Shown here in pieces: positions 716-38,886 of a stretch of DNA of 64,000 nt. The first letter of the stretch is position 1; each line of letters starts with the position of its first letter. The DNA is from Yuukianura sp. NJ FZ-2021 (Eukaryota): the NCBI GenBank assembly GCA_046563655.1, contig CM102288.1:620001-684000 (forward strand), written 5' to 3'. Below the pieces are notes generated by a model. The model ran no database searches, was not told where the DNA came from, and saw only the letters and a list, made by a program, of their open reading frames with translations. A program made the translations under genes and the position numbers.

Positions 716-851
716 CGTGTTAGACAATTAAAATTCGAGAGTATGGGAATCAAATAGTAACAATGAAATTTCCGAATTGAATCTCAACTGAAACCTCTCA
801 TTTAGTATATAATGGTGGATTAAATAAAGTATATTAAGCATTTTTAAGTAG

Positions 852-1669
852 TTACCTGTCAGAAATGACGTATTGGTGACTGAGTGTTTGCCAGTAGAAG
901 ATGATGCTGACAATACAGATCAACAGAAGTACTGGGATCATGATGAACGTTATGCACATTGCCGGTGCTGTGTTGAATTTGATCCAGCCCAACAGTACTA
1001 CGTCCACAATGAACAGGAATATTGACACTGAGTTGGCCAAAACCTTGAGAAATTACACAAACTTTTCGGCAAATACTTTAATTTTTTTTTAGAATTTGTT
1101 AAATTTTTACCCAAGCTAGGTCAATATAAAAAATGAGAAGATTGTGCGGTGACTGAGCGGCCAACTTGATAGAATTGACCTTCGCAATTGCTTCAATATG
1201 TGGAAGCAGACAAGTACAGATCATTATGGACTGAAATTCGAAAAACATAAAATTTTGAACCCGAATCTCAAAAAATTTCAAAATTTTCCAAAAATCTTAC
1301 CAACAAACAAGCACTGACGAGCAGCGATGTCGTAATTACAAAAGCCGACAGTAGGAACTCATTCGTGTCAGGTTGAATCTGCAGTTCAACCGTCGCTACG
1401 ACCGAGAATCCTGCCATTCTGAAAACCAAAATTTGAAAAAAATTCAAAAATCTGAAGAAAAAAAATTTCAAAATCTTTCTTTCAAAATATCTCCAAAAAT
1501 CTTACAGTGCCGCAATTTCCGTTACACCTTTGAGCTTTGCCTTGCTCAACTGCAGGCGTCTCCAAATCAATTGTTCAGGCTCCGTTTTGTCATCGTCTAA
1601 ATTTTCCACTTCCCGCCCCAATTCGTCCAAAATGTCCAGTCCAATGCCCCTGTCCATGTCCATTTTCAT
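852..1669 (-). CDS. Orai: Orai-family Ca2+ channel paralog A (4 exons visible; 3' end may continue beyond a last intron)
   Basis: GT-AG splicing gives WRRLQLSKAKLKGVTEIAALMAGFSVVATVELQI (TM1), FVITTSLLVSACLLSIMICTCLLPHIE (TM2), SPH..YIDLAWVLANSVSIFLFIVDVVLLGWIKF (TM3), IMIPVLLLI..FYWQTLSHQ (TM4). It ends at ISDR followed by AG|GTAACT, which is either a stop or a splice donor. Confidence 0.9.
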
Positions 1670-2446
1670 CCACTACACTGTCACTTCTACACTAATTGCG
1701 CAGATCCTGATTCTAACTTCTGCGCACCTCCACTTCCATCCTGTTGACCTCCGTGACCTCAGATTTAGATTTCCACTTTAGTAAAATTTCAAAGTCTCAA
1801 AATTCCCCTTGACCACACACTCAAACTCCGTCTTGGCTTTTCTACCAGGAAAAAACTGTAAATTGTCAAAATTGACAAAATAGAGCACGGTTGTGGTTTG
1901 TAGGTTAATTGACCATTAAATTCAAACTAAACTGCGCCTGTACTTAAGAAACAAACAAGACTCAAAATAAATGCAAAGTTTAGCTTAGAAGTTGAGTTCC
2001 GAATGATTCGTTTTAGGTTCCACTTGGACAGGGAGATTTAATTGTGCAGTTCAAGTGGAAAATAAAAGGAAGTTTTTATGTCCAAATTGTAAAAAGTTGA
2101 AGGTTCCCCGTGTGCTCACTTGTCTACACTTACTTTTAGTACTTTAACTTCCCTCAATTGCAGTATAACTTAAAAGTCTATAACCAAGGAGTAAGTCTAT
2201 AGTTATGTAAACTCATAGAATTACATAGTATATGAAAAAAAAGAACGAAAACCTAACCACAACTTAACAATAAAATGTTGTGGCAGTGCTGTTTAAACTC
2301 TCAATTTCAGCAGATCGGGACTTCAAACAGGAAAAATTGCTAAAAATTAGCAATTCAGAATTTAAAATCGTAAAAAGACAGCACTAAGTAAAGTTTAACA
2401 AAAGATTTAAATTTTTTCAAAATTTTAACATAGTGTTATGTTAAGG

Positions 2447-3349
2447 TCACGGCGGGACGTTGACAGTAGAGGCGTCGTCAGAGAGTTTCCGTTTCAGTTG
2501 ACCTTTTGACCTCACACTTCCGGATCGAAGATGCTCCAATGCAAATAAAGTGTCATCTTCAATGTCATCTTCGTTTGAATTACAATAGTCTTGGCCAAAG
2601 AGGCGTTTCTGAAGCAGTTCTCGCCAAAAGCGAATTGCAAAGTAAGCCATTAGGAGAATCGTGGGCGAGATGACGGCAGTTCCAGAAGTAGCCACAATTT
2701 TTGAAACGTTTTGAAATTTGATCCAAACGATCAGCATCATGTTGATGGTGAAGAGTACGACCGTGCCGGTACTGGCCATAAGCCAGGTGACCTCAAAAAA
2801 AAATGTTTAAAAATTTCTAAATTTCAAAATTTTCCAAAATTCTAATTCCTTACTTGTATAATGACCTGATCTAAGCGAGATAAAAAATAGAGCTGGTGGG
2901 ATTTGAACCTAGAAGTGAGTCCAGTTTCGACCAAAACGTTGTCCAGTTCCTCATTGGCTGTCATGAACGGAACAAGTGCTGCTGTGAACAAAATTACAAA
3001 TGCTGCCATAGAAGTTAGCAGAACTGTAGTCACTGAGAAGAGAGTTAGCAGCCAGGGGTCAGCCGTCTCGTGACCTTGGAGGTCAGCCACTGAAGACTAA
3101 AAAGTACAAAAGAGGCAGTTTTCTAAAAGAAGAGTTTTTAGAATAAAATTTTTAAGAATTTTGAAAAGTTACCATGCAGAAACCTCCAATGAGCGCCATG
3201 AGGCGAATGACCCCACTTAACTTTGCCTTGTACAGAGCAAAAGTTGGCTGCCGTGGGTGGACTGGAGGTGGGCCGTCAGGAACCTGAAACTCAAACTGTT
3301 CCGACCCACGTCCCACCGGAACAACGTCCATCCGAATAGAAATGCTCAT
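2447..3349 (-). CDS. Orai: Highly divergent Orai-family paralog B (3 exons: ~3173-3349, 2853-3096, 2447-2791)
   Basis: LYKAKLSGVIRLMALIGGFCM|SSVADLQ (TM1), WLLTLFSVTTVLL..LVP (TM2), W..TVVLFTINMMLIVWIKF (TM3), ISPTILL..FAIRFWRELL (TM4); four-TM spacing as in Orai and position inside the cluster. Confidence 0.8.
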
Positions 3350-3933
3350 CGTTTTCAAAATAAAACACGAAATGTCGACTGTTTTCAAATTGACACTCAC
3401 ACTAAATTCTCGGGGTTGTAACAACAAAAAAATTTGACAAAAATTGCAACTTTTTAGGAATTTTTTTTAGAATGGATTAATTTGGGAGTGTAATCAATTG
3501 ATTGCAAAGCTTTATCAGCTCAACAAAGCACAATTGATTCTGTCAAACTTTGATTTGTTCGCATTTTACAAAAAGAAAAATCGAGTCTGCTAAATATCAT
3601 TTGCAAAAAATTAAATTTTTTGAATTTAGAATTTGGAAAAGACTGCAGCTTTTTAATACAACTGTGTCGCTGTTCATGAGGGCGATTTGCGTTGGCACAA
3701 ATTGCAATTTCAATTTGTACTCTGTACTGTTTAAAAATTAAAAAAAAAAATTAAAAAAATAACCTTTAAAAAAAATATGTTTTCATGCTTCGTAAAACTA
3801 AAAGTAAAAATATAAATAATTTATTGCTCCCGCTAATATTTGTTTCTCCAACTTTAAAAAATAATTTAGTAGATTTTTAAATCTTTTGAGAGAACTAATT
3901 AAACCGTCATTTAAAAATATGGAGCTGCAGTTT

Positions 3934-4825
3934 TTATACATTATGAACAGCGTTACGTGCATACCTGACGGTTGTATTCCCTGAAGAAGCGGAAGCGATA
4001 GATGATGAAGTAGAACTAAGATGTCGGAGTGCCGCTGTCGTTTCAGCGACAGAGTCGTTGCTCATTGCTTGACCTTCACTGGCAAACTCCAGTTGTTCGT
4101 GCATCCTCTCAAGGTCATCGTACTTTTTTGAAAAGACGTTGTACTGATGAGAAACTATTTTCCGGTAAAAGACGATACCAAACACTAAAATGACAATGAG
4201 GACTGGAACCATGATGCACGTCGCAGCGTAGGCAGCGACCATTGAAAAAAATGCAAACTTGATCCAGCACATGAGGATAACGTCGAGTGTAAACAAAAAC
4301 AGCGACACCGTATTGGTCAACACCCAGCAGAGGTCAATTAGTCGAATCATGGAGTCATGGGGAGAAAGTGATACTTGAGACACAAGCGACATCTTGGACA
4401 CTGCACTAATGTGAGGCAGGATGCATGTTCTGCAAATTCAAAAATCTCAATTTTATTTTGACCTTCTGACAATTTTTTGAATTTCTACAGTTGAAATTTT
4501 TGAAAGTTGAGCTTACGAGATCATGACAGCCAGAAGAGAAACTGAAACGAGAAGCGACGTCGTAACTACAAATGCAGTCATCAGAGCGGGGTTGGCGTCT
4601 TCGTCATTGATTTGTAGCTCCACGGTCACAACCTAAAGAACAATTTTTTCAAAATTTTGAATTTTGGTGAATTTTGAATTTTAGGAAACTTACAACGGAG
4701 AATCCTGCAAAGATTTCAGCCATTTCTGCACAATTGGCCAATTTCGATTTACTGAGATGAAGTCGCCGCCATGCCAAGAATTCTGGAGTATTCATTTCAT
4801 CTTTGTTCAAACCATGAAAATCCAT
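3934..4825 (-). CDS. Orai: Orai-family paralog C (3 coding exons: ~4694-4825, 4517-4632, 3934-4429)
   Basis: AWRRLHLSKSKLANCAEMAEIFAGFSV|VVTVELQINDED, TTSLLVSVSLLAVMISTCILPHI, SPHDSMIRLIDLCW..LFTLDVILMCWIKF, IMVPVL..FYRKIVSHQ. The start codon is tentative because a splice acceptor lies just upstream. Confidence 0.92.
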
Positions 4826-5589
4826 TTCAAAACTGAAAAAAAACACTAGTTTAAAAAAAGAAGACACAATTTCACAAAATTTTATCAAAAATTGTAATTT
4901 GAGATGTTTCCAAACCCAGCTGCGTAAACACTTAAAAATTTAGGCTCCACTAATTCCCTCAGAATCCGTACTTCAATTTAGTCAATCGCAATTGAATCGG
5001 TCATTTTTTGTCGAAACTTTTCACTTTTGTGGTTTAGCACTAAATTGTCGCTTGTAAAATTCAGTCTTGAATTCGGTCAAGTTGTGTTTCTTCCGAGAAC
5101 TTGCAAAATATTTACAAAATACGGAACTTTTTTCAGTTTTATCTAATCCCTGGCCTAGAGAACGTCAGTAGCTCAAATCCACTTCTGTTTTCGTCTAACC
5201 TTTTTAGTCACCTAAACTTCAATCTGCACAAGGTTTTGTGTAAATGACTTTTAATACGCCTAATCTCAAACACATTGTTCCCTCAACTGGAGGCTCCAAG
5301 ATAAGCTACCGACGTTAACTACAACACACTTAAACATTTAAACTTAATCTAACTCAATTTCCATTGCAATCACACAAAAAGAAAAAAAACTCAAAATGTC
5401 TTTACAAACTTTAGAAAAAATGGAGGTCAAATGCACAGTTTATAAAGATTTGTAAACATGTAGCTCATCGATCATTTAAAAGTGTCGAAAACATACCAAA
5501 AGTTTGGAAATTTTGGAACTTCGAAAGCACTTTTTACCAAAAATTGCTGCTAAACTACAAACGAAATTTTAGCAAAAGCTCGGGAGATT

Positions 5590-6903
5590 TTAGACGTTGA
5601 TGATTGGCGGATCCAACTGACGCTTCATTTCTTCTAGTTCTTGGCATTTCAAGTCAGAGATCATGTACTGATGGTGCACAATTCTTCGGTAAAAAACGAC
5701 TCCGAACAGACAGACACCGAATAGCACAGATGACAGGAGAACTGAAATTGCAAATTTTACAAAATCCGTTTTTGAAACTTTTTTTTTGAAAGTTTTTTTA
5801 TGTAAGTTACTTGTAGCACACCAACTTGCTACTTCTGAAAAGTAGGTGAACTTGATCCAGCAGAGCAGAATGACATCGAGTGTGAAGAAGAAGATGGACA
5901 AAGTGTTGCCAAGGACCCATGACAGGTCAATGAGGAACATCATGGAGTCATGCGGAGACTCATGTGCTGAGGAATACGGTGCTAACTTGGCCACCGTCTC
6001 AATATGTGGCAGAATACAAGTCTACAAAAAGTTAAAAACAGAACATGTTTAGATGTTAATGATTTTCATGGTTGGCATTTGTTGTACTTTGGGTATACAA
6101 CTTACGGAAATCATCACTGCCAACATGGTCGTGCTGTGGAAAATTCAAATTGAAAACATAAGAGAAACAACATGATTTTAGAATGCCAACATTGAATTTT
6201 ACAAAATTAACTTGCGAAAATGCAAAGCCATGGAGTCCTTTTTACTTACCAAACGAGAAGTGATGTTGTGATTGTAAATGCACACAAGAGGTAAGGATCT
6301 GGATCGTCATTGATTTGCAATTCCACAGTGGCTACCTTGCAATTCCAGAAAAAAATCATAATTTTTCTCAGAAATTGCGAATTTTGAAAAATGCAAATGA
6401 AATTATGTGAGAATTTGAATTTAGTTGGCGACATACCACGGAGAAGCCGGCCATACTGTTTCACATGCACCCAAAAACAAAAAAGTATAAACATAGAACA
6501 AAATTTTGGCGAATTTGAAATTGCAAAAAAACTTACACTGCTGATATTTCAGTGATTCCTTCCAATTTGGCTTTGCTGAGATGAAGGCGTCGCCAAGCTA
6601 AAAACTCCGGCGTGTTCACATCCATTTGCTCCGTGTCTTCAAACTGGAACTTCTGGCTCTAAAAAACGCAAAGTTAATTAAAACTTAAACTAATTAAAAA
6701 CCATAAAGTGAATATTTGAATGTTCATACCGGTGCCGGGAGTTCTTCGAGCTGAAATGTCACCGAACCACAGTGGGGACTTTCGTCTGCAATACTCCATG
6801 ACACCGATCGTGGCTCCGAAGCTACCCGGGTAGCGACATTCGTCGGACTTGTCGGGGGACTCGGATTTGGCGACATTGACGGAAGACTCTGCGATGGTCG
6901 CAT
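5590..6903 (-). CDS. Orai: Orai-family paralog D, copy 1 (7 exons including 19-nt and 28-nt micro-exons)
   Basis: Pro/Ser-rich N-terminus MRPSQSLPSMSPNP; AWRRLHLSKAKLEGITEISAV|MAGFSV|VATVELQINDD; TTSLLVC|TTMLAVMIS|TCILPHIE; ESPHDSM..FTLDVILLCWIKF; FYRRIVHHQ..ELEEMKRQLD. All junctions are GT-AG and phase-compatible. Confidence 0.93.
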
Positions 6904-7355
6904 GATGTCACCCTTCCTAATAATGCTCTGACACAAACTAAGAACTGCGAAAAATTCAGATACTCTCACTCAGTCAAACTTGCAAAAAACTTTTCGCATA
7001 ATGAAGAACTCTGCGTACCTCGAAAATTAGAGTTCGAATTTAGTTAATTTATGAAAATGAAATTAGAAAACAAGATCATGTGCGAAAAAGAATGACAGAA
7101 GACGAAAGTAAACACATTCGCTTGACAGGAGATTTTGCAAGAAGCAACTATTCTGCATCACAACTTTTGTTACAACACAGAATTAATTTTAAGTCAATCT
7201 TAACTTACATTCGTTTTGTCAACATTTAATAAACAAGAGCGGACAGATTTAAAAGTAAAATTAATAAAAGACTAGAAGCATGGTTTCGAAAAATTATCAC
7301 TTTAAAATTCTTACTTCACTAAAAATTAACGTCAAATAAATTACTTCATTTAGCC

Positions 7356-8883
7356 TTATTCACTCAACGGAAAAAAATAGTTTTGTTCAAAAATTCCTTC
7401 CCCACTGACTCCACCGCTGTAAGTAACGTTGTAGTTGTAAATGAGATGCTGCGATTCATCTTCGTAGGATCCAAAAGTATGACGACTCTTCCGAGCTAAA
7501 GACAAATCAAAAACAAATCTAGTAAAGTAAATGCAAAATTTCAGTTTTATCCCATACGAATTTGTAGAAATTTACCTTGGTTGACCAAAAACTGTGCAAA
7601 ATATTGGCCGATGAGGACAGCTTCACTTGTATGCGGAATGTTTTTCTTCCAGCTCCACTCGTACATGTTCTTCTCAGGGTGGAATTGGATTCCAAAGAAT
7701 GGATACTTTTTAGATTCTATGCTGGATACAAACAGAGGCTCAAGAGAGTCATTGGACCATGACAAAACGTTGTACTGCTCTTCTATTGCACTGTGCTGTT
7801 TTAGTGTGTCCTTGGTTACACAAAAGTGATGAAAATTCGATGCTAATGGTTGGTTAGCCAGCAGCTTCAGAACGGTCGCTGGAGCGCGCTTGAACAGTTC
7901 ACTGTATTTCGCCACTAAAAGTCACATCAAAACCGGTCACTTATTAAACAAATGTTTTCCAGGTCAATCAATTACGTTTTCAGTTTTTCAAAGACATCCA
8001 CTGTAGACTTACACTGTGTAAACTGTAAAGTGGTGCTGATGTTGTAGGAGTTGCAATTGGCCAGTACTTCTGTTCCTAGAACTTCGTAGATCAAGTACTC
8101 GAAGCCAAGACATGTTCCCCAGACGGGGAAGTGATCTCCGTTGTCATTGGCTTCTCGGGCAAGAGTCATCAAGTACTTGGCAGCACTCGCATATCCAGAT
8201 TCATTGAAATAAACTCCTCCCCCGGGCAGAAGTAACCTAAACAGAGGAATCAATGTATTTTCACTATAAGTTTTCTGGTTTCACTATTTAGCACAATCAC
8301 CCATTGATTCCTTGAAATATTTGATCGTAATATTCCCGCGTCTGATTAATCCTGTAGTAATTCCAGGTTCAAAAATTAGATTCAATTAAAACTTCTTAAT
8401 TTTGTTTCAATTTTACTCACTTTACGGGCACGACTCTGCCACCACCTCCTTCCACAAATTTAACATAGGATGCTGCAATATACGAAAGTGAGGGTTCGTT
8501 GACCTTGACCTTCCCGTCATTGTGGTACTCCTGAGCCAGTATTCCTGAAAAAAAAAATCAAACGGTTATCACTATTGTGAAATTGTGATCAATTCCATCA
8601 CTTTTTAAAAGATTCAATTTTGACAAACAGCTGATTTTTCCCACACTAAAAAGAAACTTTTTTTTGCTACTAACTAACCGATAATAGGTCGGTCATTCCA
8701 AAAGCCTCCTGCTTCTGCTGAAGCAAGTTCAAGGTCAGCGTCTTGCGAAGTAACAGTGTAAATGAAGGCAATACCAATTGCCAAACTAAAAATTACTACA
8801 AATGTCAGTGCCAAAAGTGCTAAGAATCTGAAAGAACAAAGAACGTTGTCCTCGTCCTCACGCTGAATTCTGTCTACTTCCAT
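7356..8883 (-). CDS. GGH: Gamma-glutamyl hydrolase (peptidase C26), copy 1, with N-terminal hydrophobic segment
   Basis: NDRPIIGILAQE, SYIAASYVKFVEGGGGRVVP, LLLPGGG, FPVWGTCLGFE (catalytic Cys), NFHHFC, YPFFGIQFHPEK (catalytic His), LIYNY; 6 exons. Confidence 0.93.
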
Positions 8884-9544
8884 TATGTCCAACCAATTGC
8901 TCCAAGTAAATTGACCCCGAACTTTGACTTTTCTCCAAAGGTTGAAGGATTTTCATTTTCAAAAAACTTGGTTTAAAAAATCAACCAGAACGTCAAAAGG
9001 TTACAGTTTCTAAAGAAAATGTAAACCCGATGAGAATAGGAAATTAAAATCTCTACAGAGATTTTTAGAGCTAAAAATGCCTCCCCTCCCCATTCCCCAC
9101 CCACTATCAGTAGATTATACTGCCAAAATATAAAGGCGATGAATCAATAATCTCTGCAGTATGGCTTTGGATGAGCGCTTTTTGCACAGATTCGCAATTC
9201 GCACATTTGAGCGTCAAAAATGACTCAAATCCAACAGCGAATTGTCTAATCTAATCAAGACCTTTGACCTTATTTAGTAGTGAAAGCCAGATCCTGATAA
9301 GAATTTCACAAAAAAATTTAAGCAAACTGCTGTTTTCATTATTTCGGCAAACGTTTATGAATTATTAGCAAAAATATCTTCAAGAGTTGGATTGAAATTA
9401 TTGAAACTTGCTAGAGAAATTACTTATGTATTATGGAATCTATGAAATAAATCAAAAGTTAACTTACTACGACGTTTTGTTCCAGTAGGAGAAAATCTTG
9501 AAAATTGAAAGTCGATGTTTCTTCGTGATCTTTGTAAAGATATC

Positions 9545-11514: not shown

Positions 11515-13662
11515 TTAAGTTCTTTTCAGATTTACCCTAAACGATAAATAAACTCCTGGCTCTGTTTTTGGCATATTTGGAAAGTTGGCACTCCATTTGT
11601 ACCAGAATTTGTAAGCCCGGGGTGATGGTGGTGGTCCGTTCATACTATTTTCCGGCGGCTCGCTTCTTCTAAACGTTCGAATCTAAATACAATCATAATA
11701 CTTGACTATAACTCAACGGAATGAAATGACGATTCGGGCACGATAGAGAGAGTGAGACAGAAAACTGCGAGTTGAATTTACCGCGCTAGCTATCGCAGAA
11801 TTTCGAATTACTCGAATTGACGAGAGGAGCATTTCTGGATCTGGGTTGATGTTAACGATCATAGAAATCCGACTTGCACTGGTGAGGTAGCTTTGAATGA
11901 GTCTGGTAAGCTTGCTGTCGCGATACGGAATAATGTCTACCTTTGAGCCATTTTGTTTCTCTCTAGAGAACGTAAATTGAAAAATGAATATTAGGTTCAC
12001 TAATTGAAATTAAACCAGATGAAGCCATTAGCACTTACCTTAAAGCACGAATGCACCGGAGCAAGACAATGAGTGACTGATTGATCGTTCCAGATTCTTT
12101 GAGGCGAGCTCCTATGTTACCTGTTTGTGAAGTGCGTTCTAGTCCAGCAAGATCACAAAATGAAAACCTGGTTGATACAAACGTTTCCTTTCATACTGAT
12201 TTATGTTACCTATACCTCTTACTGCATGCTTCATGATGTAAATTCTAAGCTTGTGCGAGTAAAGTGACTTACCGACGAACTTCTTTTGGATAGATATGAG
12301 ATCCAACTTTCCCAATAACAACCATACGGATATTGAAGAACGAATGTGATCTGCTTGAGTTTGAGTTTACATTTGTTGAAGCAAACTGTAGATTCTGTTT
12401 CCCAGCTAGGAAAAACTGATAAGCCTCTTCTGCATTATTGACACAGCACTCCGTCAGATCTGTAGAAGAAGAAACGTGTGAGTGTCATTAGTAGGTTCCA
12501 TGAATTCTGGATATACAATTTGCGTTTTTTTAAATTACCTTTTATGTAAACGTGGCCATTTTTGTCTTGCAATATCTTCAGCTCCCGACGACGAGTTTTG
12601 CCTCGTGTTACAGTATCGAATAGGTCGTAGACTCTTTCATTATAAACTTCAGCAAACGAAACCCAGATGGAGTATAGCATTGACTTGTCCGGTAGCGACA
12701 TAAGGGACTCCTCCTCGGTTCCGGTGGACGAATTTGTTGAAAAGATCGGGTGACTTGCGGACCCTGATGAGCAGACCGAAGATGACGAGGAGCGCAGAAT
12801 GGAGTCGACAAATGATGACATGTCACTTGGTTTCTAAATAATAATCACCAACATTATATCTATAAACGTGAAAATATTTAACAAAAAATAATCAAAGTAC
12901 AGTGTCTTTACAATTTTAGCATCTCGCAACACTCTGTGTCTGGTCTCCGCATTAATTTTCTGCATATTTTTGTCGCATACGATGTAACTGTCGAATTGAT
13001 ACGGCTTGATATCCCCCTTTCGGTAAAGACTCTCATCTACTCGAGTGAACAGTTGCTCCAGCGTTCTTGGAATGATTCCAAAGTCCTTTCCGTATCCTGC
13101 AGGAAATAAAATGTGTACTTTTTCTGCTCGAAGCCTTCTGCATTCGTATTCAACATGCTCAGCAGCAGATTGTGCGCTCTGAATAGCATATCGGTTACCT
13201 TGCATTGTGTAGGTTTTGCCAGAGTTAGTTGTACCGTAACCAAAAATCAAACCATTGTCGCCTTCCAGAAAACCAGTGACAATGCCACGGGCACATTCAT
13301 CATAAACCTCTGCCTGGGTTGCTCCTGGACCGAAAGCTCGTGAGTAAGTAAATGTCGATTCCCTTCTATCAGGCAACATCAGCTTATTCGGTGGTCTGAC
13401 AAGAAGCGTCTTTTCGTCCAACAGGAAGAAGGCCTAAGGCAGAGATAACTAACTTTAATTACAAGTGATGAATTCGGTATATGAACAACTTAGATAATCT
13501 GGTTACCTCTTCAAACACGGTTTTCTGGTTAACTCCGCGTCCTGTTGGACGAAGTCGAAGATATGTCTTGATGTGTTCTGTGCCATTATCCCCAGCAAAC
13601 TCAGCAGATTCATCAGACAATCCATTCATAACACGTCGATCATCTTCAATTACGTCAGCCAT
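11515..13662 (-). CDS. Kinesin-6 (KIF20/MKLP2/subito-like) motor-domain protein, apparently without stalk or tail
   Basis: HIKTYLRLRP, GYGTTNSGKTYTMQG (P-loop), long loop-6 insertion typical of kinesin-6, WVSFAEVYNERVYDL, NSNSSRSH (switch I), FCDLAGLER (switch II), IPYRDSKLTRL. The 3' end is uncertain. Confidence 0.85.
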
Positions 13663-19000: not shown

Positions 19001-22000
19001 TGGAATTCGAAATTTTGAAAGATACTTGCATGAGAGGTTTGTGACAGGAGACGATGAAGTCTGGTTTGGAATTTTTGTAGATAAGTTTGGAAGTTGTTTG
19101 GAGCCATTTCCACTGGCCGTCTTTGCTCTGGAGGCGGTAGGCAATGAGACAAGACCTACCGGTTTTTAGTACTAAAATTCAAAAAACAAAATTAAATTTT
19201 GAAAATTCCTCATTTTTTGAAATTTCATGTTCCGTTTTACATTCTTGATGAGCAGAGGCCACATAAGCAAGGTCATCAAAATGGACTAGGTCATAACCAC
19301 CCATGTTGGTCAACTCTGCATCTGAGTAGCCCAGGAGCATCTTCCCTCTGTCAAATTCAAAATCTACATTTTCAAAATTTACTTTTTCAAAATTTTGACC
19401 TGTGATCCATGGAGAGAATGCCGAGATCAAGTTTGTGTTTGCTGTTGATTGTGACTTCTTTTTGCGGCGTTTCCAGCATTGTCGGTGGACCAAACGGCGT
19501 ACAAAGTGCAAATAACGCCATTGGCCCTTCGCCTGACTTCCGATTTTGGCCGTGCAGAATTCTCACCCGTCCACGAATGTCCAGTCTCTAAAAAACCAAA
19601 ATCCAATTTTCAAAATTTGTCAAAAAATAGAAATTTTCCACTTTTTTTCAAATTACAGAATTTATAAGGTTTAGGTTTAAGCGAAAGTTGGACATTGAGA
19701 TAAGAAAAATCAATGCCAGAATTGATTATTCTCCCCTAAAACTCTCTCTCTTTCTCTCGCTATGAGAAAAATTAGAAAGGAAAATAGTTACTCCCTCCAC
19801 TTCTGAGAAAATCCATGTTCAACTAATCTAAAAATCTTTAAATCTCTACCTACCTTTTGGAAAGAGAAAACATTAAAACATTTTATCCACAAATTTATAT
19901 TATTCTACTCTCTTTTTAATCTAAAATGGAAATCTATACGAAACAAAAAGGTTCTCCTTTTATTCCGAAAACTAAAAGGCTCCTTTCCGTAAACCATAAA
20001 ACAATGTAGTAAATTCTCCATTTCCTATGCAACTAAAAAGCAGTCATAAAAACTTGGAAACTTTCTCCCCAATTTGCAAAACCAAGAAAAAACACTTTTT
20101 AGTTGTTCAAAGAAAAATCGGTTTCGTTAAAAAAATCGGTTTTGTGAAAAATCGCTCACATATTTGGACTCCTTTCATCTACAAAAGAAAAGATTTTAGA
20201 TGGATTTGGTTCACTTTTTTTGTGTGTGGCACAGTGAAGTAACAATGACTTGCCGTCTAACTGTCGAGGTCAAAGGTCAAAGGTCAATTGGCTTACCAGG
20301 AACCCCGACGTATTGTCCAGGAGACATCTAAATCTGACTGTGAATGACCTCTCGAGGAAATTAGCGTGCTCTGGAGTGTGAATTGCTTCTGGCAAGGTCA
20401 TTCCGGACAATTCCGAAGGCAGAAATGCATTCCACATCAATTGCCGCTGCAACTCTTCACGATCTTCCGAGTGCACCATTTCCCAAATAGACTGATGAAC
20501 AATGTCGGACTGTAAAAATTAAAAAGCGGGAAAATTTGAAAACGCGGGCAATTTGTTTTCAATTTGTGCCAGAATTGCAGAAAACTAGAAAGTTTTGAGA
20601 AAAAATCATGTATTGTTTAAAAAAAAAGTTCTTGTGGATTTTATGCTTGTTGTGGTGAAAGTGATTAGTAAATTTGAGACAGTTGATGATTGTATTTTGG
20701 TTTGACATGCAAGAAGTGTTTGTGCGTTTGTGACCTCCCGTGACCTGCCTCAACGTAAAGTTAAACAATGAATGGAAAAAGTGAGGTTGATTTGATTTGT
20801 GCATGGAATAATGCGTGTTAACACGCCTTACGTCCTTCACAATTTACTCATGTCCACATGCAAGTTCAATAAGAAAACGATGTCTCACGTTCACTAACCA
20901 CGCATAACACGTTACGTTTTTACACAATTTTAAAACAATTTTAAAAAACTAGGCAATTTTTTAAGATTTTTCAACTCCTGGAGCAAGATTTCTCAAAAAG
21001 TTTCAGATTTTGTGTAATTTTTCGCAGAAACTGCTTAAGTTTGACCTTCACTATAAAAGTCAAGGTCAAAAGTTAAAATTTTACTTTTGAGTTTGAGTTT
21101 TTTTTTACATGTGAAGACATTTTTTGTTTTGCGTTTTGAAAACACAAAATTGAAAACTCTTTTTTGAAAAAAAAATTGAAGTTGAGAATGTGGGCGAAAA
21201 TTAGTCTCATTAATCATGTTTCTGTTTTGGGCTTGCCGTCTGTTCTGAGCATTTGAAATTCAAACGTTCCTTAAATACTTTTTGATTGTTTCACAAACTT
21301 CGCCCACTTTTTCAAAGCTTTTTTTAAATTCTAAAAAATGCTTTTTAGAACAAATCGTTAGCCCAGGAGGAGGCCTTTCATTGTTGAAAAGGAGAATTCA
21401 AAAGCGAGACTTTATTAAGACATATTTCACACAAGGGGGTCGCGATATGTGCCTGGTGTCATCATAAATTCAATTCTCATAAGTGTCAAAACAACTTTTT
21501 CAAAAAACGGACTTCAAAATTTTGAAAACCAAGTTTACGAAATTTTGGAATCATCTTTTGAAGACAGCAGTTACCTGATGCATTCCTAGGTAGCACTCGA
21601 TGTTGTGAGTGGTGAAAAAAAGTTCTCCGTCGTCGCAGCTTATCATCAGCAAAAATCCATTAAGAGCCTGCAAAGAAAAAATTACAGAAAAAAAGTTTTA
21701 GATGAAAAATTTAGCACAAAAAATGTAAAACAGGATTTTTTTTGGCGAAAACCGTTTTTTCACAAAATTTATGACTTTGGCCTATTTTTGCCCGTTTCCG
21801 TCCCATTTTCTGTGCTGTTTTTCTCTTTCCAAAACCTTTCACAAGTTATCAGATTTAGGATTTCAAAATTTAGCCTCCGTAAAAATCCGAAAAATTTTGT
21901 GTTCCAAGTCTACTTTTCAAAACCGTTTTTTCTGGAGAGTTAAGTCATAACTTTTTTGAAATTTTGGTTCATGCTGATTTGAGAATCATAACTTCGCTGT

Positions 22001-25396: not shown

Positions 25397-28193
25397 TGCA
25401 AAAAAAAAAATTCAAAAATTTTAAAATTTAAAAAATTTTTGAACTAGGTGTGCGTGGCTAACCATACGCTTTTATTTCAAAAACGAACCAAAAATTTTGA
25501 TACTAATTCTTTATGTTTTTTTTTTTGTTTGAGAGAATTCTGATGGCGGAGGCATGAATTCCCTTTGGATTGGTTGTTATTTTGTTTTTGTTGAAGACAA
25601 AAGAAAATTGGTATAAAAATTACATATGTTGGGATGAACAAAAGGAAAAAATGGAAGAAGTAAACTCGTTTCGCTTGGAGAGAATGGGAGGAAATTATAC
25701 GTTCAGTTCCCTTGTTCCTATCGACAGTTTCTTAACAATTTCTGAAACTCTTTCACAAAAAACACAAACCATCATTATCTTCCTCCATCACTTTTTTTTT
25801 GTTCTAAAAATCAAGGCTACAATCAAAGTTTTAGTCTCTCAAACTCTAATCCAAAATTACTTCCATAGTCTCACAACTAAAAAAACCAAAAGAGTGTTCT
25901 GATTTTTCAAAATTTTGGGGAAAAAAAACATCAGAAGAAGTTAAAAATCATTTTTTTGGAAGAAAATTTCAAAATTTTCTGAGTAGTTTTTGAACAATTG
26001 AGTTGGAATTTGGGATGTGAAAATAAGAGTGAAATGTGAAAAGAGAGCCGCACCCTGTGTGCCATGATCCTTAATCTAGAATCGATGAGAAATAAATTGA
26101 GTCCATAAGGTAAAAGCATACGTTAGGCTAGCGTCGTTAGGTTGTGCCAGTAGGCACGTGTAGCCTTTAAGGTTTTCGTTAGGTTAGTTGGGTTAGTGTT
26201 TTTGTATCTCGCTTTCTCCCCTCCGAACATTAAGGAGTAATTAAGAATAGAAAGAGAGGATTGACAAAGGGCCCAGCGACGCCTTCATGTTATTCCAACT
26301 CCCCCATAGTGCTTTCTCCACAAGACGCCTAGCCTAACCAACCTAACTGTTAGCCTAACCAAACCTATTTTCAGCCTGACATGAGTTTCAACCCAGGTAG
26401 ATTTCCGATTTCCCTGGGAAAAGACCCGGGAGAAGGCCAAAACTCCCGGGACACACGCCGCTTATCAACTCATTCCACATAAACGATCTACCCTTTCTCT
26501 CTCAACATGTCGTAGTTAGGTTGTTAGCCTAACAAAATCCAATAACCTAACAAATCCTAACATTTCCAACCTAAATTCTACGACATAAGGGTAGTTTTCT
26601 ACCTGTGAGTTTCGTGGACTTGTCAATCCCTTGATCCCCCTTCAACTCCTGCTATGTAGAATATTAACTCTTTGAGTCCAAATGAACCGAAAAAAGTAAG
26701 AGTAAAACCGAATTCGGGGAAAAGCGGACTTAGTCACTTCCAGTTTTAGTTTTTGTGAACGTGGTTCGCCTACGGGGGTGAATAAATCAAGGGAGTTATG
26801 TTGATTTGTGTTATTTGACAAGTAAGGGAGGAGGGTTAATCTTTTGACTCTGTTAAATTCTGCTTTTACTTATTTTGGACTCAGCTTAAGCTCTAAACTT
26901 GAGTCAATAAATTTCAAAACACTTGACAGGTCAGGTCACTTCCATCCAGGAGCTGCAAATAGGCTTAACAACTTACAACCAATCAGCTTCCACAAAAAAA
27001 CTCAATTTTCAAAACATAAACATAAAATAAAAAGCAGATTTTCAAAAAAAAAAAGCCTCAAGAAATTTAATCACGAAAATACCGTATTTCACGGCGTATA
27101 ACGCGCGCTGAAATACTATGATTCCTGGAAAATATAAATTAAAAAAAAATTTTTTTGCAGAGAGTTTGAATAGTTCCTCCAGCTTCAACTTTGGTGCTAA
27201 CTGCTTAGTGTATGTTGTTAGCGCTAGCGGTAGCTTCATTTTTTGAAACTAAAGTTCGTGATAGCGTGATGTTGAGTATTTGGTTGCCGAAGGTGTTGAC
27301 GGCGTGTCTTTCAAATATTTCCCAGCACGACTTCAGCCAAATACGAAACTCAATTCATTCCCGTTTTAGTACCAAAAGTAGAGAGCTTCTTAATTCAACT
27401 TTGACCTCATGAACTTACGCATGCAAACTCCATCTCAAAACCTGTTGAAATTCAGTCAATACTTTTCAAAATTTGGAATTTCCCGTTTTTCTATTCCAAT
27501 TTTTCGGCGCAGACTGTTCCTTCTCGGTGGTACAATTTATCGGAGCAGCCTGTTGTCAAATTAAATCGTCCAATTGAAAAAGTAAAGAGATAGGTCATGC
27601 TGTGCTGTCAATTGTTTAGTTTTATTAAAGTAAAAACTGAGTTCCTGTCTTAAAACTGGAGAAATTTGTAGACTGAAGTAAAAAGTTGATTTAAAGCGGG
27701 AGTAATTTTCGCATGTCTTTTTCTCTTTTAAAGCTGAGTGCGGAATCGTTTTGTAATTGTGAATAAAATATAGTTTTGTGTTGGTAGTGTGTAAATCGAC
27801 GAGTTGTCTTTCGTTGTTGCTTAATTACAGGTTACACACCTCTCATTATACTTCACTCTTCTTCCACTTTGTGAACCACAATCAATTCGTCTTCAAGCAA
27901 AAGTAGGAGAGAGCGACCAAGATACCATGAACACCAACGTATTTTTACAAAAATTGAATTTTTTTAAACTCATTTTGGAACTAATTTCTCATGATCTTCT
28001 TTAGAACTCAAGTGGAACAACGAGGAACTGAAAATCCAAGGTGTTTAAACGGATTTTCTAAAATGGAATTTGAAAAGTTGATCCAGAATGACTCAAGGTC
28101 TGTCATTTTAAAAGCTTGAGATTTAGATTGAGTTTTTGTTTTAAAAAGTTAAGCTTAAGTTGTCACTGTAAGTTACAAAAATGGGGAGCTGTT

Positions 28194-29542
28194 TTAGACG
28201 TTGATGATTGGCGGATCCAACTGACGCTTCATTTCTTCCAGTTCTTGACATTTCAAGTCAGAGATCATGTACTGATGATGGACAATTCTTCGGTAAAAAA
28301 CGACTCCAAAGAGACACACACCGAATAGCACCGAGGATAAAAGAACTGAAATTGCAATTTTAAAAAATCCGTTTTTGAAACTTTTTTTTGAAAGTTTTTT
28401 TTTATGGAAGTTACTTGTAGCGCACAAACTTGCTACTTCTGAAAAGTACGTAAACTTGATCCAGCAGAGCAGAATGACATCGAGTGTGAAGAAGAAGATG
28501 GACAAAGTGTTACCGAGGACCCATGACAGGTCAATGAGGAACATCATGGAGTCATGCGGAGACTCATGTGCTGAGGAATACGGTGCTAACTTGGCCACCG
28601 TCTCAATATGTGGCAGAATACAAGTCTACCAAAAGTTAAAAACAGAACATGTTTAGATGTTAATGATTTTCATGGTGGCATTTGTTGTAGTTTGGGTATA
28701 AAACTTACGGAAATCATCACTGCCAACATGGTCGTGCTGTGGAAAATTCAAATTAAAAAAAAGGAGAAACAACATGATTGTAGAATACCAACATTTACAA
28801 AATTAACTTGCGAAAATGCAAAGCCATGGATTACTTTTTACTTACCAAACGAGGAGTGAAGTTGTGATTGTAAATGCACACAAGAGGTAAGGATCTGGAT
28901 CGTCATTGATTTGCAATTCCACAGTGGCTACCTTGCAATTCCAGAAAGAAATCATAATTTTTTAGAAAAATTGTGAATTTTGAAAAACGCAAATGAAATT
29001 ATCTGAGAATTTGAATTTAGTTGACGACATACCACGGAGAAGCCGGCCATACTGTTACACATGCACCAAAAAAAGAGTATAAACATCAATTTTGCATGAA
29101 CAAAATTTTGGCGAATTTGAAATTGCAAAAAAAACTTACACTGCTGATATTTCAGTGATTCCTTCCAATTTGGCTTTGCTGAGATGAAGGCGTCGCCAAG
29201 CTAAAAACTCCGGCGTATTCACATCCATTTGCTCCGTGTCTTCAAACTGACATTTTTGGCTCTAAAACACACACAGCTAGTTAAAAGTTAAACTAGTTAA
29301 ATTGAAATTAGTTAAAAAAAGTTTAATTTGTTAAAAACTATACAGTTCACACATTGGAATGTTAATACCGGTTCCGGGAGTTCTTCGAGCTGAAATGTCA
29401 CTGAACCGCAGTGGGGACTTTGGTCTGCAATACTCCATGACACCGATCGTGGGTCCGAAGCTACCCGGGTAGCGACATTCGTCGGACTTGTCGGGGGACT
29501 CGGATTTGGCGACATTGACGGAAGACTTTGCGATGGTCGCAT
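28194..29542 (-). CDS. Orai: Orai-family paralog D, copy 2 (intact, same exon structure)
   Basis: Same splice sites and micro-exons as copy 1. The protein is nearly identical (e.g. W>L in ASWCAT, F>C in SQKFQ) despite many synonymous differences. Confidence 0.92.
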
Positions 29543-29986
29543 GCTGTCACCCTTCCTAATAATGCTGACACAAACTGAGAACTGCAAAAAATTCAGATAC
29601 TCTCATTCAGTCAAACTTGCAAAAAAGTTTTCGCACAATGAATGTAACAGAACTCTGCGTATCTCGAAATAGTTAATTTATGAAAATGAAATTAGAAAAC
29701 AAGATCATGTGCGAAAAGAATATGACAGAAGATGATACCAAACGCTTTTGCTTGACACTGACACATTTAGGAAGGAAGCATTCTGTATCACAACTTTTGT
29801 TACAACACAGAATTAATTTTAAGTCAATCTTAACTTACATTCGTTTTGTCAACATTTAATAAACAAGAGCGGACAGATTTAAAAGTAAAATTAACAAAAG
29901 ACTAGAAACATGGTTTCGAAGAATTAGCACTTTAAAATTCTTACTACACTAAAAATTAACGTCCAATAAATTAAGTTAGCTCAGCG

Positions 29987-32833
29987 TTATTCACTCAACG
30001 GAAAAAAATAGTTTTGTTCAAAAATTCCTCCCCCACTGACTCCACCGCTGTAAGTAACGTTGTAGTTGTAAATGAGATGCTGCGATTCATCTTCGTAGGA
30101 TCCAAAAGTATGACGACTCTTCCGAGCTACAAATCAAAAACATATCTAGTAAAGTAAATGCAAAATTTCAGTTTTTATGTAAATCTAATTAGAATTTGTA
30201 GAAATTTACCTTGATTGACCAAAAACTGTGCAAAATATTGACCAATCAGGACAGCTTCACTTGTATGTGGAATGTTTTTCTTCCAGCTCCACTCGTACAT
30301 GTTCTTCTCAGGGTGGAATTGGATTCCAAAGAATGGATACTTTTTAGATTCTATGCTGGATACAAAGAGAGGCTCAAGAGAGTCATTGGACCATGACAAA
30401 ACGTTGTACTGCTCTTCTATTGCACTGTGCTGTTTTAGTGTGTCCTTGGTTACACAAAAGTGATGGAAATTCGATGCTAATGGTTGGCTAGCCAGCAGCT
30501 TCAGAACGGTCGCTGGAGCGCGTTTGAACAGTTCACTGTATTTTGCCACTAAAAATAACATCAAAACCGGTCACTTGTTATTAAGAAAAATATTTTCCAG
30601 GTCAATCAATTTGGTTTTAGTTCCAATGCTCCCATCTGAGATATTCAAATTAACTTACACTGTGTAAACTGTAAAGTGGTGCTGATGTTGTAGGAGTTGC
30701 AACTGGCAAGCACTTCTGATCCAACAACTTCGTAGATCAAGTACTCGAAGCCAAGACATGTTCCCCAAACGGGGAAGTGATCTCCGTTGTCATTGGCTTC
30801 TCGGGCAAGAGTCATCAAGTACTTGGCTGCAGTCGCATACCGTATTTTCCCAAATAGTACACCTGGTGTACTAATTTTGTTTTCGACTTCTGGGGGTGGT
30901 GTACTATTAGGGACCTGGTGTATTATTAGAGACGGTGTACTAATTAATTTTTTAAGAATGAGGATTTTATTCTTAACTAAAACGTTCAGGAATCAGGAGA
31001 AAATAATTTCTAAATTACTAAAAACTACTCCACTTCGATTTCAGAATCCGTATCCACAGTGTCCAACAATGAATCCCAGGCAATCTTCACCCATTTAGTC
31101 ATCAATTTCTTGGATGGAGCCTTAAAAATTAAGAATTTATATAAATTCTATTTAAAAAGAAACCTACGAAATTATTAGTTATGATTTACCTTCAAATACC
31201 TTACGCTGGCGTACGACTTTACTTATAAATGTAGCCAAATCAGCAACTTTCGAAAACAATTGATCCGGTTCCTTTTGTCCTACTGTAGTCCTCCGTCTTA
31301 ATGATAATGAGTGTCTTTTGAGAAAACGATTCAGCCAGCCCAAACATGCGACGAACTTCGTTCTGTTTCCGTTATCCAATGTTGGGAAAATTCTCTTCGC
31401 CTGCTCTTGAATCGAACGCCGTGAGACCCTTAACGATTTGTTTCGTTGTTCCATAATCCAGTAAAAGAGTGAATCATCCAACTCAGGTATCAATCGTTTC
31501 CGTCCACCGCCGATCAACCTTTTGTGTTTGATCTTGGACGATTTCACGTTTGACACTGTAAACAAAATACTGTTTCAGTATGAATGTAATAATGAGGAAA
31601 AATTTTTTTATTCACAATAATTACTCACCTAAAGCATTTTCCTTTCTAATCCATGTCCGAATACTCTGTCGATCAATGTTGCATTCTTTAGCTGCTGCAG
31701 AACTTGATTTATCCTTGGCCAATTTCAATACTTTCAATTTGAACTCCAGGTCAAATGATCTTTTTTTGTTGGGAGACATTTTAAGTAAGAATACGAATGT
31801 TAAGTAAAACAATTTGGAGAGAAGTAACGTGGAGATAAACACAACAAATGAAGAGCTATAATATTACTAGCTCAACTACCTTCTCCGGGTGTTATACTCC
31901 TAATGCTACATTACCAAATACCCTGGTGTACTATTAGAGACCTGGTGTACTATTTGGGACGGTGTACTAATTAATTTTTCGGCCCCTGGACCTGGTGTAC
32001 TATTAGGGACCTGGTGTACTATTTAGGTATGGTGTACTATTAGGGAAAATACGGTATCCAGATTCGTTGAAATAAACTCCTCCCCCGGGCAAAAGTAACC
32101 TAAAAAGGGGAATCGATGTTTTTTATTAGATTCACTAAAAAATTTCAAGTTTCACTATTTAGCGCAATTACCCATTGATTCCTTGAAATATTTGATCGTA
32201 GTATTCCAGCGTCTGATTAATCCTGTAGTAATTCCAGGTTCAAAAATTAGATTCAATTAAAACTTCTTAATTTTATTGCAATTTTACTCACTTTATAGGC
32301 ACGACTCTTCCACCACCTCCCTCCACAAATTTAACATAGGATGCCGCAATATACGAAAGTGGTGGTTCGTTGGCCTTGACCTTCCCGTCATTGTGGTACT
32401 CCTGAGCCAGTATTCCTGAAAAAAAAAATGAAACGGTTATCACTATTGTGAAATTGTGATCAATTCAATCACTTTTTAAAAGATTCAATTTTGACAAACA
32501 GCTGATTCTTCTCACACTGTAAAGAAAAAGAAACTTTTTTTTTGCTACTAACTTACCGATAATAGGTCGGTCATTCCAAAACCCTCCTGCTTCTGCTGAC
32601 ACAAGTTCAAGGTCAGCGTCTTGCGAAGTAACAGTGTAAATGAAGGCAATACCAATTGCCAAACTAAAAATGACTACAAATGTCAGTGCCAAAAGTGCTA
32701 AGAATCTGAAGGAACAAAGAACATTGTCCTCCTCCCGATGAATTCTCTGTCTACTTCCATTATGTCCAACCAATTGCTCCAAGTAAATTGACCCTGAACT
32801 TTGATTTTTCTCCAAAGGTTGAAGGATTTTCAT
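29987..32833 (-). pseudogene. GGH: GGH copy 2, interrupted in a coding exon by a 1.2-kb pogo-type element
   Basis: Same exons as copy 1; the exon encoding LPGGGVYFNESGY/ATAAKYL is split at the Tyr codon by the element at 30840-32054. Confidence 0.88.
30840..32054 (-). mobile_element. Internally deleted pogo-family DNA transposon (Brinker-like HTH + CENP-B HTH retained, DDE core missing)
   Basis: 24-bp TIR CCGTATTTTCCCWAATAGTACACC; TA TSD (30838-39 and 32055-56); the empty site is visible in duplication copy 1 near 8192. Subterminal GGTGTACTA repeats; ORF MSPNKKRSFDLEFKLKVL..IRTW / GGGRKR..LDDSLFYWIMEQRNK..FVACLGWLNRFLKRHSLSLRRRTT. Confidence 0.95.
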
Positions 32834-33406
32834 TTTCAAAAAACTTGGTTTAAAAAATCAACCAGAACGTCAAAAGGTTACAGTTCCTAAAGAAAAATGT
32901 AAACCCGATGAGAAAAGGAAATTAAAATCTCTAGAGAGATTTTTAGAGCTAAAAACGCCTCCCCTCCCCATTCCCCACCCACTATCAGTAGATTGTACTG
33001 CCAAAATATAAAGGCGATGAATCAATAATCTCTGCAGTATGGCTTTGGATGAGCACTTTTTGCACAGATTCGCAATTTGCACATTTGAGCGTCAAAAATG
33101 ACTCAAATCCAACAGCGAATTGTCTAATCTAATCATGACCTTTGGCCTTATTTAGTAGTGAAAGCCAGATCCTGATAAGAATTTCACAAAAAAAATTTAA
33201 GCAAACTGCTGTTTTCATTATTTCGGCAAAAGTTTATGAATTATTAGCAAAAATATCTTCAAGAGTTGGATTGAAATTATAGAAACTTGCTAGAGAAATT
33301 ACTTAAATTAGATACGAATTAATTAATGCACAAAAACGAAAAATATAGCTTACTGTTTTTCCGGGGAACATGAGCATAACTTTGTTAAGATTTCATTACG
33401 ATGTGA

Positions 33407-36961: not shown

Positions 36962-38573
36962 CAGGAGAAGCTGTAAAATACAAACTCGCTGTGATTGGTT
37001 GTTTCACGAAATGAAAGGACGCCGATACCGTAAATTTTCAAAAAGCAACAAGGCGAGCACAAATTTATTGATTTGATTTGTAATTTAGACGCTTAACCAG
37101 TTTTCTCGCTTTTTCTGAAACAATTAACAATTGTTTCTTTCTTGACCTCATTCCACGATTGACACAGCATTTCTATCCCATCGGAAAGTTTCACCTCACT
37201 CAAAACTTTACCAGAATCCAAAATTTTAACAATTTGGGAGGAATAATTTTGTTTCAGGGACTGAATAATTCCGGAATCCAGTGGTTGACTCTTTGAGGTC
37301 GTATTGGGTGGCAGAAATAAAAGTTGTAAATTTGGGAAAAATTCCTCCTCAACCTCATGTCCGCTAAAATTGTCCAGTATGAGCAGTATCTTCCTTTTCT
37401 GGTCTGCCATGTTTGAATTTAACTTTGCCAGCCACTCCGAAAACAATTCCCGTGTCATCCAGGCTTTTTTTGACGAACGATACGTAAATTCTGAGGTGAA
37501 TTTAGTGTTTTTGAAACACCTCGGATTTTTTGACTTCCCGATAATTAGCAGTGGCTGTTTCTGGTCGCCAGTTTTGTTACAACAGATTAAGAAAGTCACT
37601 CTTTCCTTTGAAGCTTTCAGGCCAAAGCACTTTTTTCCTATGCAAAAAAAAAAACAAACATTAACTTAATTCCACGAATTAGCTTAAACGTAACTCAGAA
37701 CTTAAAGAATAACAGTTTAAAGTGACCTTCCCACCTTTCACGTCAAACGTCGTGCCGGGTAGTTTTTTGAAAAAAAGCGCTGACTCGTCGGCGTTGAAAA
37801 CATCCGAATCATTGTAGTTTTGAGTTGTGGGTACTAAAACGTTCCGTTTCCAGTTGTCCAGGTTTTCGAGGTCAACGCTCAGTTCCTCACCGCAAATTCG
37901 CTTATGGGATAGGTTGTTCCTTTTCTGAAAACTATCGAACCAACCGTCAGAAAATTTCTTGTTCCCATTTGGATCCAGCATTCTAGCCTTTTCTTTAATC
38001 AGTGGACAGGAAAGCGGAATTCCTTTTGCTCGTTGTTCGGTAATCCAGGTCATAAGTAATTCATCCAGTGCTTTTACCTTCGCATGAACAACAGCCTTCC
38101 TCTTCTAATAAAAAACAAGAGGAACATTGCTCAAAAATCAAAAAAAAAATCGGCAATACTAATTATCGTAGATTATGTAAAACTACGTATATTTAAAAAA
38201 TTTACTAACTTTTGGATTCCCCTTGAAGTTTTCCAGTTCATCTTTCTTCTTAATCAGTAGGCTCAATGTCGACTTAGCGATAGAATATTTGGTACAGATG
38301 TCTTTTCGCGGGATATTGCCAACTTCTGCCAGTATTTTTCTCTTTGTAAACACAGTGGGACTTTTAACTTTCGGCATTTTTAATTAAGTAAATGTATTTA
38401 AACAAAATACCAGACAACTAAAACTTAAAGGGTAAGGTCAGAACGAGAACATACGTTCGTTCTGGAAAGAGAAAAAAACCAACGGAAACTGTTCCCTCCA
38501 AAATTTTGAATTTTACGGTATCCCGCCACGGAGGGAAAGTAGAAAAAAAGTTTGTATCTTACAGCTTCTCCTG
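36962..38573 (-). mobile_element. Full-length Tigger/pogo transposon (1612 bp)
   Basis: TIR CAGGAGAAGCTGTAARATACAAACT with TA TSD on both sides. Confidence 0.95.
37093..38377 (-). CDS. Tigger-type transposase, 3 exons (38210-38377, ~37735-38104, 37093-37637), open frame
   Basis: N-terminal HTH (YSIAKSTLS), CENP-B HTH (WITEQRAKGIPLS..FSDGWFDSFQKR) and catalytic DDD triad: NADES, LILDNFSGH, LPPNTTSKSQPLD (31 residues between D2 and D3). Confidence 0.92.
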
Positions 38574-38886
38574 TACTGCGGTAGACAATATTTACTACTA
38601 TTTTATTTTTAAGACTTATTTTTAAGACTTAGCGAGCCGCTCGCTCTCAACAATTAGACTCTGAAAATATTAAAGTGAACATGACGTAATTGGCCCAATT
38701 GATTCGGAGTCTTTGTCAACGTTTTGATGTTTCTGTAAGTGTGATTTCATCCTGTCCGGGATTCCTGCATGTCTCCAATCACACAACTTCGAATTTGCCC
38801 AGTTCAAGGTCAAAATCGTTCCAAATCGGATCTCTGACTCGTGGCATTTCAATAACAGCCAGTTAAAACAACAGAAAGAAAAGCTA

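Follow-up and report, generated by a model that had tools for sequence, protein, structure and literature searches.

The window analysed here is a stretch of 64,000 nucleotides from Yuukianura sp. NJ FZ-2021 (contig CM102288.1 of assembly GCA_046563655.1, positions 620,001 to 684,000 of the forward strand) and contains a family of genes encoding Orai channel proteins. Four intact Orai genes, named A, B, C and D, are arranged in tandem on the minus strand at 728-6903, and a fifth one, D', lies at 28194-29542. Gene models were built solely from coordinates read off the window sequence, and D' was located by tblastn of the entire window with the first homologues; once spliced, all five genes have open frames and canonical GT..AG introns. 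Gene A (728..1669, minus strand) is composed of exons 1669-1506, 1418-1301, 1230-1111 and 1043-856, with two options for its 3' end (i.e., a stop immediately following exon 4 or a different last exon, 794-728). Gene B (2447..3349, minus strand; exons 3349-3173, 3096-2854 and 2791-2447) is highly divergent and stands outside the charge reversal discussed below. Gene C (3934..4825, minus strand) encodes 247 amino acids in exons 4825-4694, 4632-4517 and 4429-3934, while gene D (5590..6903, minus strand) encodes 263 amino acids in seven exons (6903-6730, 6658-6537, 6455-6437, 6335-6250, 6133-6106, 6021-5811 and 5741-5590), a structure identical to that of its duplicate D' (28194..29542, minus strand). 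Searched as single open reading frames (ORFs) with a cut-off of 25 bits, the family PF07856 (Orai-1) was matched by B (exon 3) at 41.5 bits, by C at 71 bits and by D at 53.3 bits; the exons of gene A are too short for Pfam and this gene was placed by tblastn, hmmalign and phylogeny. An initial annotation of this locus had set its subject at 1507..6600, a range from which the 3' part of A (ending at 856 or 728) and the beginning of D (at 6903) are left out. Regarding gene structure, part of the first transmembrane helix (TM1) and part of TM2 are encoded in D and D' by micro-exons, of 19 bases (6455-6437 in D) and 28 bases (6133-6106 in D), respectively; an intron splitting codon 95 is common to A and D, and one located after codon 101 is common to C and D.

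The spliced models encode the TM1 strings LSKAKLKGVTEIAALMAGF in A, LSKSKLANCAEMAEIFAGF in C and LSKAKLEGITEISAVMAGF in D, exactly as initially reported; the human TM1 string was used as supplied in the initial annotation, and database representatives such as P0110 have an identical one. At the inner-pore triplet 83/87/91 (human numbering), A has K/K/E, C has K/A/E plus a Glu at position 94, and D and D' have K/E/E. The triple basic inner-pore ring formed by R83, K87 and R91 was thus found in none of these four proteins, all of which carry Glu at the position of human R91, equivalent to fly K163. Such a ring is typical of the Orai proteins characterised so far but does not occur throughout the family, and its loss leaves the assignment of these proteins to PF07856 unaffected. 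The codons are as follows: K83, K87 and E91 (GAA, 1519-1517) in A; K83, A87 (4738-4736), E91 (4726-4724) and E94 (4717-4715) in C; K83, E87 (6562-6560) and E91 (6550-6548) in D; and E87 (29165-29163) and E91 (29153-29151) in D'. The substitutions assigned one by one to these genes, i.e., R91E in A, K87A, R91E and A94E in C, and K87E and R91E in D, are therefore all encoded as proposed. The broader claim that K87 and R91 are both turned into Glu in A, C and D stands for R91 in all three and for K87 in D only, A retaining K87 and C having K87A. As had also been described, G98, F99, V102 and E106 are retained in A, C and D, and E190 is replaced by Asp in all three; the former four residues are retained in D' as well, while gene B differs (S102 and D106). 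Gene A additionally has V101 and T104, and K85 is retained in all five genes.

The pore is lined in succession by the five residues W76, Y80, R83, K87 and R91, and R155, K159 and K163 are the fly counterparts of human R83, K87 and R91 (PMC4727942). Exon 1 of gene C aligns without gaps to the Drosophila Orai chains 4hkr/6aki over 35 residues (E 0.0022), with its Glu placed under K163. Since the alignment to Drosophila Orai TM1 is gapless, the acidic residues of A, C and D are expected, by homology, to line the pore, with a predicted inner-pore charge per subunit of about +1 in A, 0 in C and -1 in D. The fold was tested on P0159 from Orchesella dallaii, an orthologue 65% identical to D, instead of the window proteins: its AlphaFold2 model contains four long helices, with TM1 as one unbroken helix (residues 70-105; mean pLDDT 77.4), and 11 Drosophila Orai chains were matched at a Foldseek probability of 1.00. 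Indeed, this model has the same fold and the same four-helix layout as Drosophila Orai (olf186-F; PDB 4HKR, 6BBF, 7KR5 and 6AKI), with TMt up to 0.89. As the TM1 string of A and D spans an intron and hence depends on splice choice, the charge reversal might be ascribed to an error in the gene models or in the alignment register. However, L81 to V101 of gene C are entirely contained in one exon that is gapless to Drosophila Orai, the Glu91 codon of A and D precedes this intron, being part of the first of the TM1 exons, hmmalign required no indels in TM1 for any sequence, and independent proteins of other springtails have the same string. We thus consider such an artefact to be extremely improbable.

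The nearest database proteins are Orai proteins of springtails (Collembola), with 60-74% identity, and every nearest named homologue belongs to a springtail; a nematode origin, which the style of the introns had suggested, was rejected for this reason. Gene C is 71% identical to P0001, and gene D 74% identical to P0007 and 65% to Orchesella dallaii P0159. Glu91 is found in 7/7 named springtail Orai proteins that include TM1, namely P0003, P0009 and P0161 from Allacma fusca, P0008 from Orchesella cincta, P0159 and P0160 from O. dallaii and P0158 from Folsomia candida, residue 87 being Ser in most of them. More generally, all springtail-type relatives with TM1 carry Glu91, the exceptions being gene B (Arg) and three relatives that have Gln. 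Glu87 is much more restricted, being present, among the sampled springtail-type sequences, in D and D' only, and also in two unrelated long-branch representatives. A search with the pattern KL.{4}E.{6}GF, which had been suggested as a signature of these channels, retrieved 14 of 278 fetched proteins, all of springtail type. In a quick, unrooted maximum-likelihood tree of 57 rows, in which B and several others have long branches, the five window genes and the remaining springtail-type sequences (21 rows in all) are separated from 36 other Orai proteins with a Shimodaira-Hasegawa-like approximate likelihood ratio (SH-aLRT) support of 99. Genes A, C and D each cluster with springtail-type relatives, with Allacma fusca sequences in the A and D groups and adjoining C, and this distribution over several groups indicates that the paralogs are old.

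The gene pair D and D' has, for its part, a more recent origin. Indeed, self-BLAST revealed a segmental duplication in which 5588-9426 is copied at 28192-33305 with 90-94% nucleotide identity, the duplicated unit consisting of D plus a gamma-glutamyl-hydrolase-like gene (GATase match at 7550-7921). An interruption of the duplicate copy near 30839-32055 coincides with an ORF matching the DNA-binding domain of a Tc5 transposase. The proteins D and D' differ at 5/263 residues; their exons have diverged at 31/792 positions (3.9%) and their introns at 39/508 aligned positions (7.7%). Of the exon changes, 26 are synonymous and 5 non-synonymous, giving a ratio of non-synonymous to synonymous rates (dN/dS) of 0.052. 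Both genes are under purifying selection. A tandem family with a recent duplication, transposon fragments nearby and an ambiguous 3' end in gene A could evoke decaying duplicates in which Glu appeared by neutral drift. Yet all five frames are open with canonical splice sites, the exons of D and D' are half as diverged as their introns, at the low dN/dS given above, and Glu is kept in Allacma fusca, Orchesella cincta, O. dallaii and Folsomia candida, making decay a very improbable explanation. Judging from these sequence comparisons, Glu91 is a conserved trait, old and under selection, that characterises a separate clade of springtail Orai proteins and is not a product of decay. This clade-wide distribution in springtails extends the initial annotation, as do the fifth gene D', with its E87 and E91, and the loss of His134 that accompanies the acidic residues.

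Position 91 proved to be variable well beyond springtails. When 1.84 billion representatives were searched with a profile, 699 matched at E <= 0.001; as the family samples are biased towards the queries, the following counts establish the presence of residues and not their frequencies. Among the 96 TM1-covering proteins (of 157), residue 91 is Arg in 34, Thr in 17, Lys in 15, Glu in 12, Gln in 7, Ser in 5, Gly in 3 and Cys, Asn or His in 1 each, while position 87 is Lys in 81 and position 106 is Glu in 94. The description of R83, K87 and R91 as the conserved basic segment of the pore is hence too strong. When a Thr-type protein was used as a query, 119 of the 120 proteins listed among 1885 hits had Thr91 together with Glu94, and the remaining one had Lys91. 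Proteins of this Thr91/Glu94 type originate from grasshoppers, termites, Hymenoptera, beetles, moths, thrips and lice, and the cricket Gryllus bimaculatus carries both types (Lys91 in P0185 and Thr91 in P0190). In the insect Thr91/Glu94 type (P0165-P0278), TM1 is near-invariant across orders.

A second residue with a key function in gating, His134 in TM2, is also replaced. A preprint describes it as highly conserved among the human paralogs and the mouse, Xenopus and Drosophila proteins (10.1101/2021.10.26.465861). In the alignment to fly Orai, the D orthologue has Thr opposite His206, the equivalent of human H134. Within the window, residue 134 is Cys in A (1309-1307), Ser in C (4539-4537), Thr in D (6129-6127) and D' (28732-28730) and Ala in B (3006-3004), the His brake of TM2 being found in none of the five. 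Among 218 database proteins covering both positions, 195 have His134, of which 50 are basic and 145 non-basic at position 91; the other 23 are devoid of His134 and none of them is basic at 91, a purely descriptive association that stems from one large clade and a handful of long-branch sequences. These 23 proteins have further changes, i.e., Val at M101 in 14 and Thr at M104 in 17. Asp or Asn replaces E190 in all 17 fully covered springtail-type proteins, and the TM4 proline P245 is additionally lost in D, D' and P0159, with Ser245 in D and D'. R91 and H134 are thus not conserved across hexapod Orai proteins.

Comparison with known channels helps to define what is particular to the springtail type. 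Drosophila Orai and the insect Lys91-type proteins share with A, C and D the filter Glu, the V102/F99 gate and K85, and their C-terminal helix is similar to that of C and D. However, Drosophila Orai combines R155, K159 and K163 with His206, whereas A, C and D have K83, then K, A or E at 87, E91, and Cys, Ser or Thr in place of His, together with M101V, M104T and E190D; a cricket Lys-type protein is only 38-43% identical to the window genes. The insect Thr91/Glu94 type, known from Schistocerca, Zootermopsis, Bombus, Tribolium and Bombyx, likewise has a non-basic residue 91, and its Glu94 is found in gene C too. It nevertheless forms a separate clade in which residue 91 is neutral and K87, His134, M101 and E190 are kept. 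That such a pore was not known from characterised channels, as had been stated initially, agrees with full-text literature searches (Collembola Orai; R91 evolution), in whose listings no report of a springtail Orai pore variant or of a characterised channel like it appeared, and the available portion of PMC7016017 holds nothing on natural R91 variation.

The sole experimental data on such pores come from human mutants with Glu at the same pore-lining positions (R91E/D, K87E, R83E and multi-Glu mutants). How the basic inner pore acts is itself debated: it has been viewed as an electrostatic gate, an anion plug or a promoter of pore hydration (PMC7034092). R91D and R91E channels are closed without STIM1 and opened by it, with wild-type-like amplitude, current-voltage relation and reversal potential (PMC7034092), and R91E was reported to leave activation unaffected while K85E abolishes it (PMC2995155). 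Likewise, R83E, K87E and R91E channels are store-operated and highly Ca-selective, with little or no fast Ca-dependent inactivation (PMC4727942). Changes in conductance, cation block, pH sensitivity or gating had been predicted for the acidic rings, and these data answer the question of gating in part: fast inactivation is lost, R91E/D being otherwise wild-type-like (PMC4727942, PMC7034092). Since the human R91E/D, K87E and R83E channels remain functional, a single acidic ring would probably not create a radically different pore; the double ring of D is, by the same comparison, unexpected. Indeed, opening becomes less stable when two or three basic residues are neutralised, an effect rescued by V102A, and a rising number of Glu substitutions leads to a progressive loss of current (PMC7034092). 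Of importance for this comparison, the human Glu mutants were engineered on a background containing His134, M101 and E190, whereas the natural springtail proteins add a residue of gain-of-function type at position 134 (and at 245 in D).

On these grounds, we propose, with a probability of roughly 0.5, that the springtail-type proteins A, C, D and D' are working Ca-selective CRAC-type (calcium release-activated calcium) channels, most likely gated by STIM, whose gating energetics have been rebalanced. According to this proposal, the innermost of the three basic pore rings (R91/K163) would be a Glu ring in A, C, D and D', and the K87 ring would also be acidic in D and D'. In human Orai1, the basic rings help open the outer hydrophobic gate, on which His134 acts as a brake; the springtail clade would thus have lost the positive rings, which promote opening, together with the brake on it (His134, and Pro245 as well in D). 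Because the filter and gate are intact, Ca-selective conduction would be kept, while neither anion binding in the inner pore nor fast Ca-dependent inactivation would be expected. Through their charge differences, the paralogs could vary in conductance, in their block by Ca, Mg or protons, or in the properties of the heteromers that they form.

Several observations weigh against this proposal. The link between positions 91 and 134 is supported by few independent lineages and is broken by gene B, which combines R91 with A134. The large insect Thr91 group retains His134, and a non-basic residue 91 does not, therefore, require the loss of the brake. M101, reported to be an essential gate latch in human Orai1 (PMC7679135), is Val in the springtail type, and gating may for this reason differ beyond what the human data predict. 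As human multi-Glu Orai1 loses current, D and D' might conduct poorly unless this effect is compensated, a compensation that we infer for these two proteins. Finally, although A orthologues have a C-terminal coiled coil, no exon for this STIM-binding element was found for gene A within 1-855; it may be located beyond the window edge. Directly downstream of A, positions 1-714 are occupied by a tandem repeat (unit of ~131 bases, copies ~95% alike) which touches the window edge and may sit in the last intron or the 3' region of this gene.

The loss of the brake also lends itself to another interpretation, namely that these channels are not classically store-operated but constitutively open or otherwise gated, the acidic rings being their main regulatory site, at which intracellular Ca, Mg, polyamines or protons might, for instance, block the pore. 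Indeed, human H134A, H134C, H134S and H134T are constitutively active with nearly CRAC-like properties, H134S being without fast inactivation, and every P245 substitution is gain-of-function, with constitutive activity (PMC7825772). These very residues are natural in A (Cys), C (Ser) and D (Thr and, as in D', Ser245), and the failure to find a coiled coil for gene A within the window points in the same direction. However, the human variants are artificial or disease-associated and have a basic-pore background, whereas their springtail equivalents are wild type and have an acidic one. This difference may be critical since, in the H134S background, removal of basic residues attenuates the constitutive activity (PMC7034092), and the two kinds of changes may hence cancel each other. 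Moreover, K85, critical for STIM1 gating in human Orai1 (PMC2995155), is kept, C and D retain a fly-like C-terminal helix with a ...ELE.M..L segment aligned to the STIM-binding helix region of fly Orai, and permanent Ca entry through the products of five genes would probably carry a cost. Constitutive or non-STIM gating thus appears unlikely, albeit worth considering. In a related and equally doubtful scenario, these proteins would be natural 'brake-less' CRAC channels in which the acidic rings serve as a new cytosolic gate or sensor (Ca, Mg or proton block) and positive rings, which favour opening in every Orai studied, are no longer needed for it. If so, their gating logic would be unlike that of any characterised Orai, and the graded paralogs (+1 in A, 0 in C and -1 in D per subunit) would differ in set-point or combine in heteromers.

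The progressive loss of function of human Orai1 with more Glu (PMC7034092) raises, in turn, the question of whether some paralogs, above all D and D', conduct poorly or not at all and act as modulators or dominant negatives in Orai heteromers. Several paralogs of differing inner-pore charge do stand side by side at this locus, and human Orai mutants co-assemble with the wild type (PMC2995155). Nevertheless, every sampled springtail-type protein of the D group is non-basic at both 87 and 91 (Ser87/Glu91), no canonical partner is known among the sampled springtail proteins, and neither the selectivity filter nor the hydrophobic gate has changed. The dN/dS of 0.05 is compatible with any function and does not discriminate this possibility, which we regard as quite unlikely. 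Working CRAC-type channels with rebalanced gating remain our preferred interpretation.

Gene B follows a path of its own. Its nearest relative, P0100, is only 40% identical, and both are placed side by side in the tree, with B on a long branch. While retaining Arg91 (3205-3203), this gene has Ser at the gate residue V102 (3096-3094), Asp at the filter position E106 (3084-3082), Ala at H134 and Asn at E190. The E106D substitution lowers Ca selectivity. In addition, V102S and H134A are gain-of-function mutations of human Orai1 (PMC7825772). By analogy, gene B could encode a naturally open and less selective cation channel.

Further genes of the window, recognised by single-ORF Pfam matches, have no obvious link to Orai. 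They encode a kinesin motor (12438-13433, minus strand), a PAS-domain protein (19182-19562, minus strand), a BPTF-like chromatin protein with DDT, PHD and bromodomain (41474-52059, minus strand) and a class I Trp/Tyr tRNA synthetase (56557-57691, plus strand). A satellite-like array with a unit of ~35 bases and a self-match of ~81% in reverse complement occupies 38883-39838, adjoining a pogo/Tc5-type transposase (DDE_1 at 37096-37665 and HTH_Tnp_Tc5 at 37682-38104).

The common assumption that R91 and H134 are conserved is thereby corrected for hexapod Orai proteins, and the acidic-pore springtail Orai represents a new natural variant of the CRAC-type channel. A lineage in which one or two basic rings have been swapped to Glu, in the absence of His134 and M101, constitutes a natural experiment on the disputed basic inner pore. 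Springtail channels could hence reveal an energetic coupling, if any, between the basic rings and the TM2 brake, and tell if these rings are needed for fast Ca-dependent inactivation.

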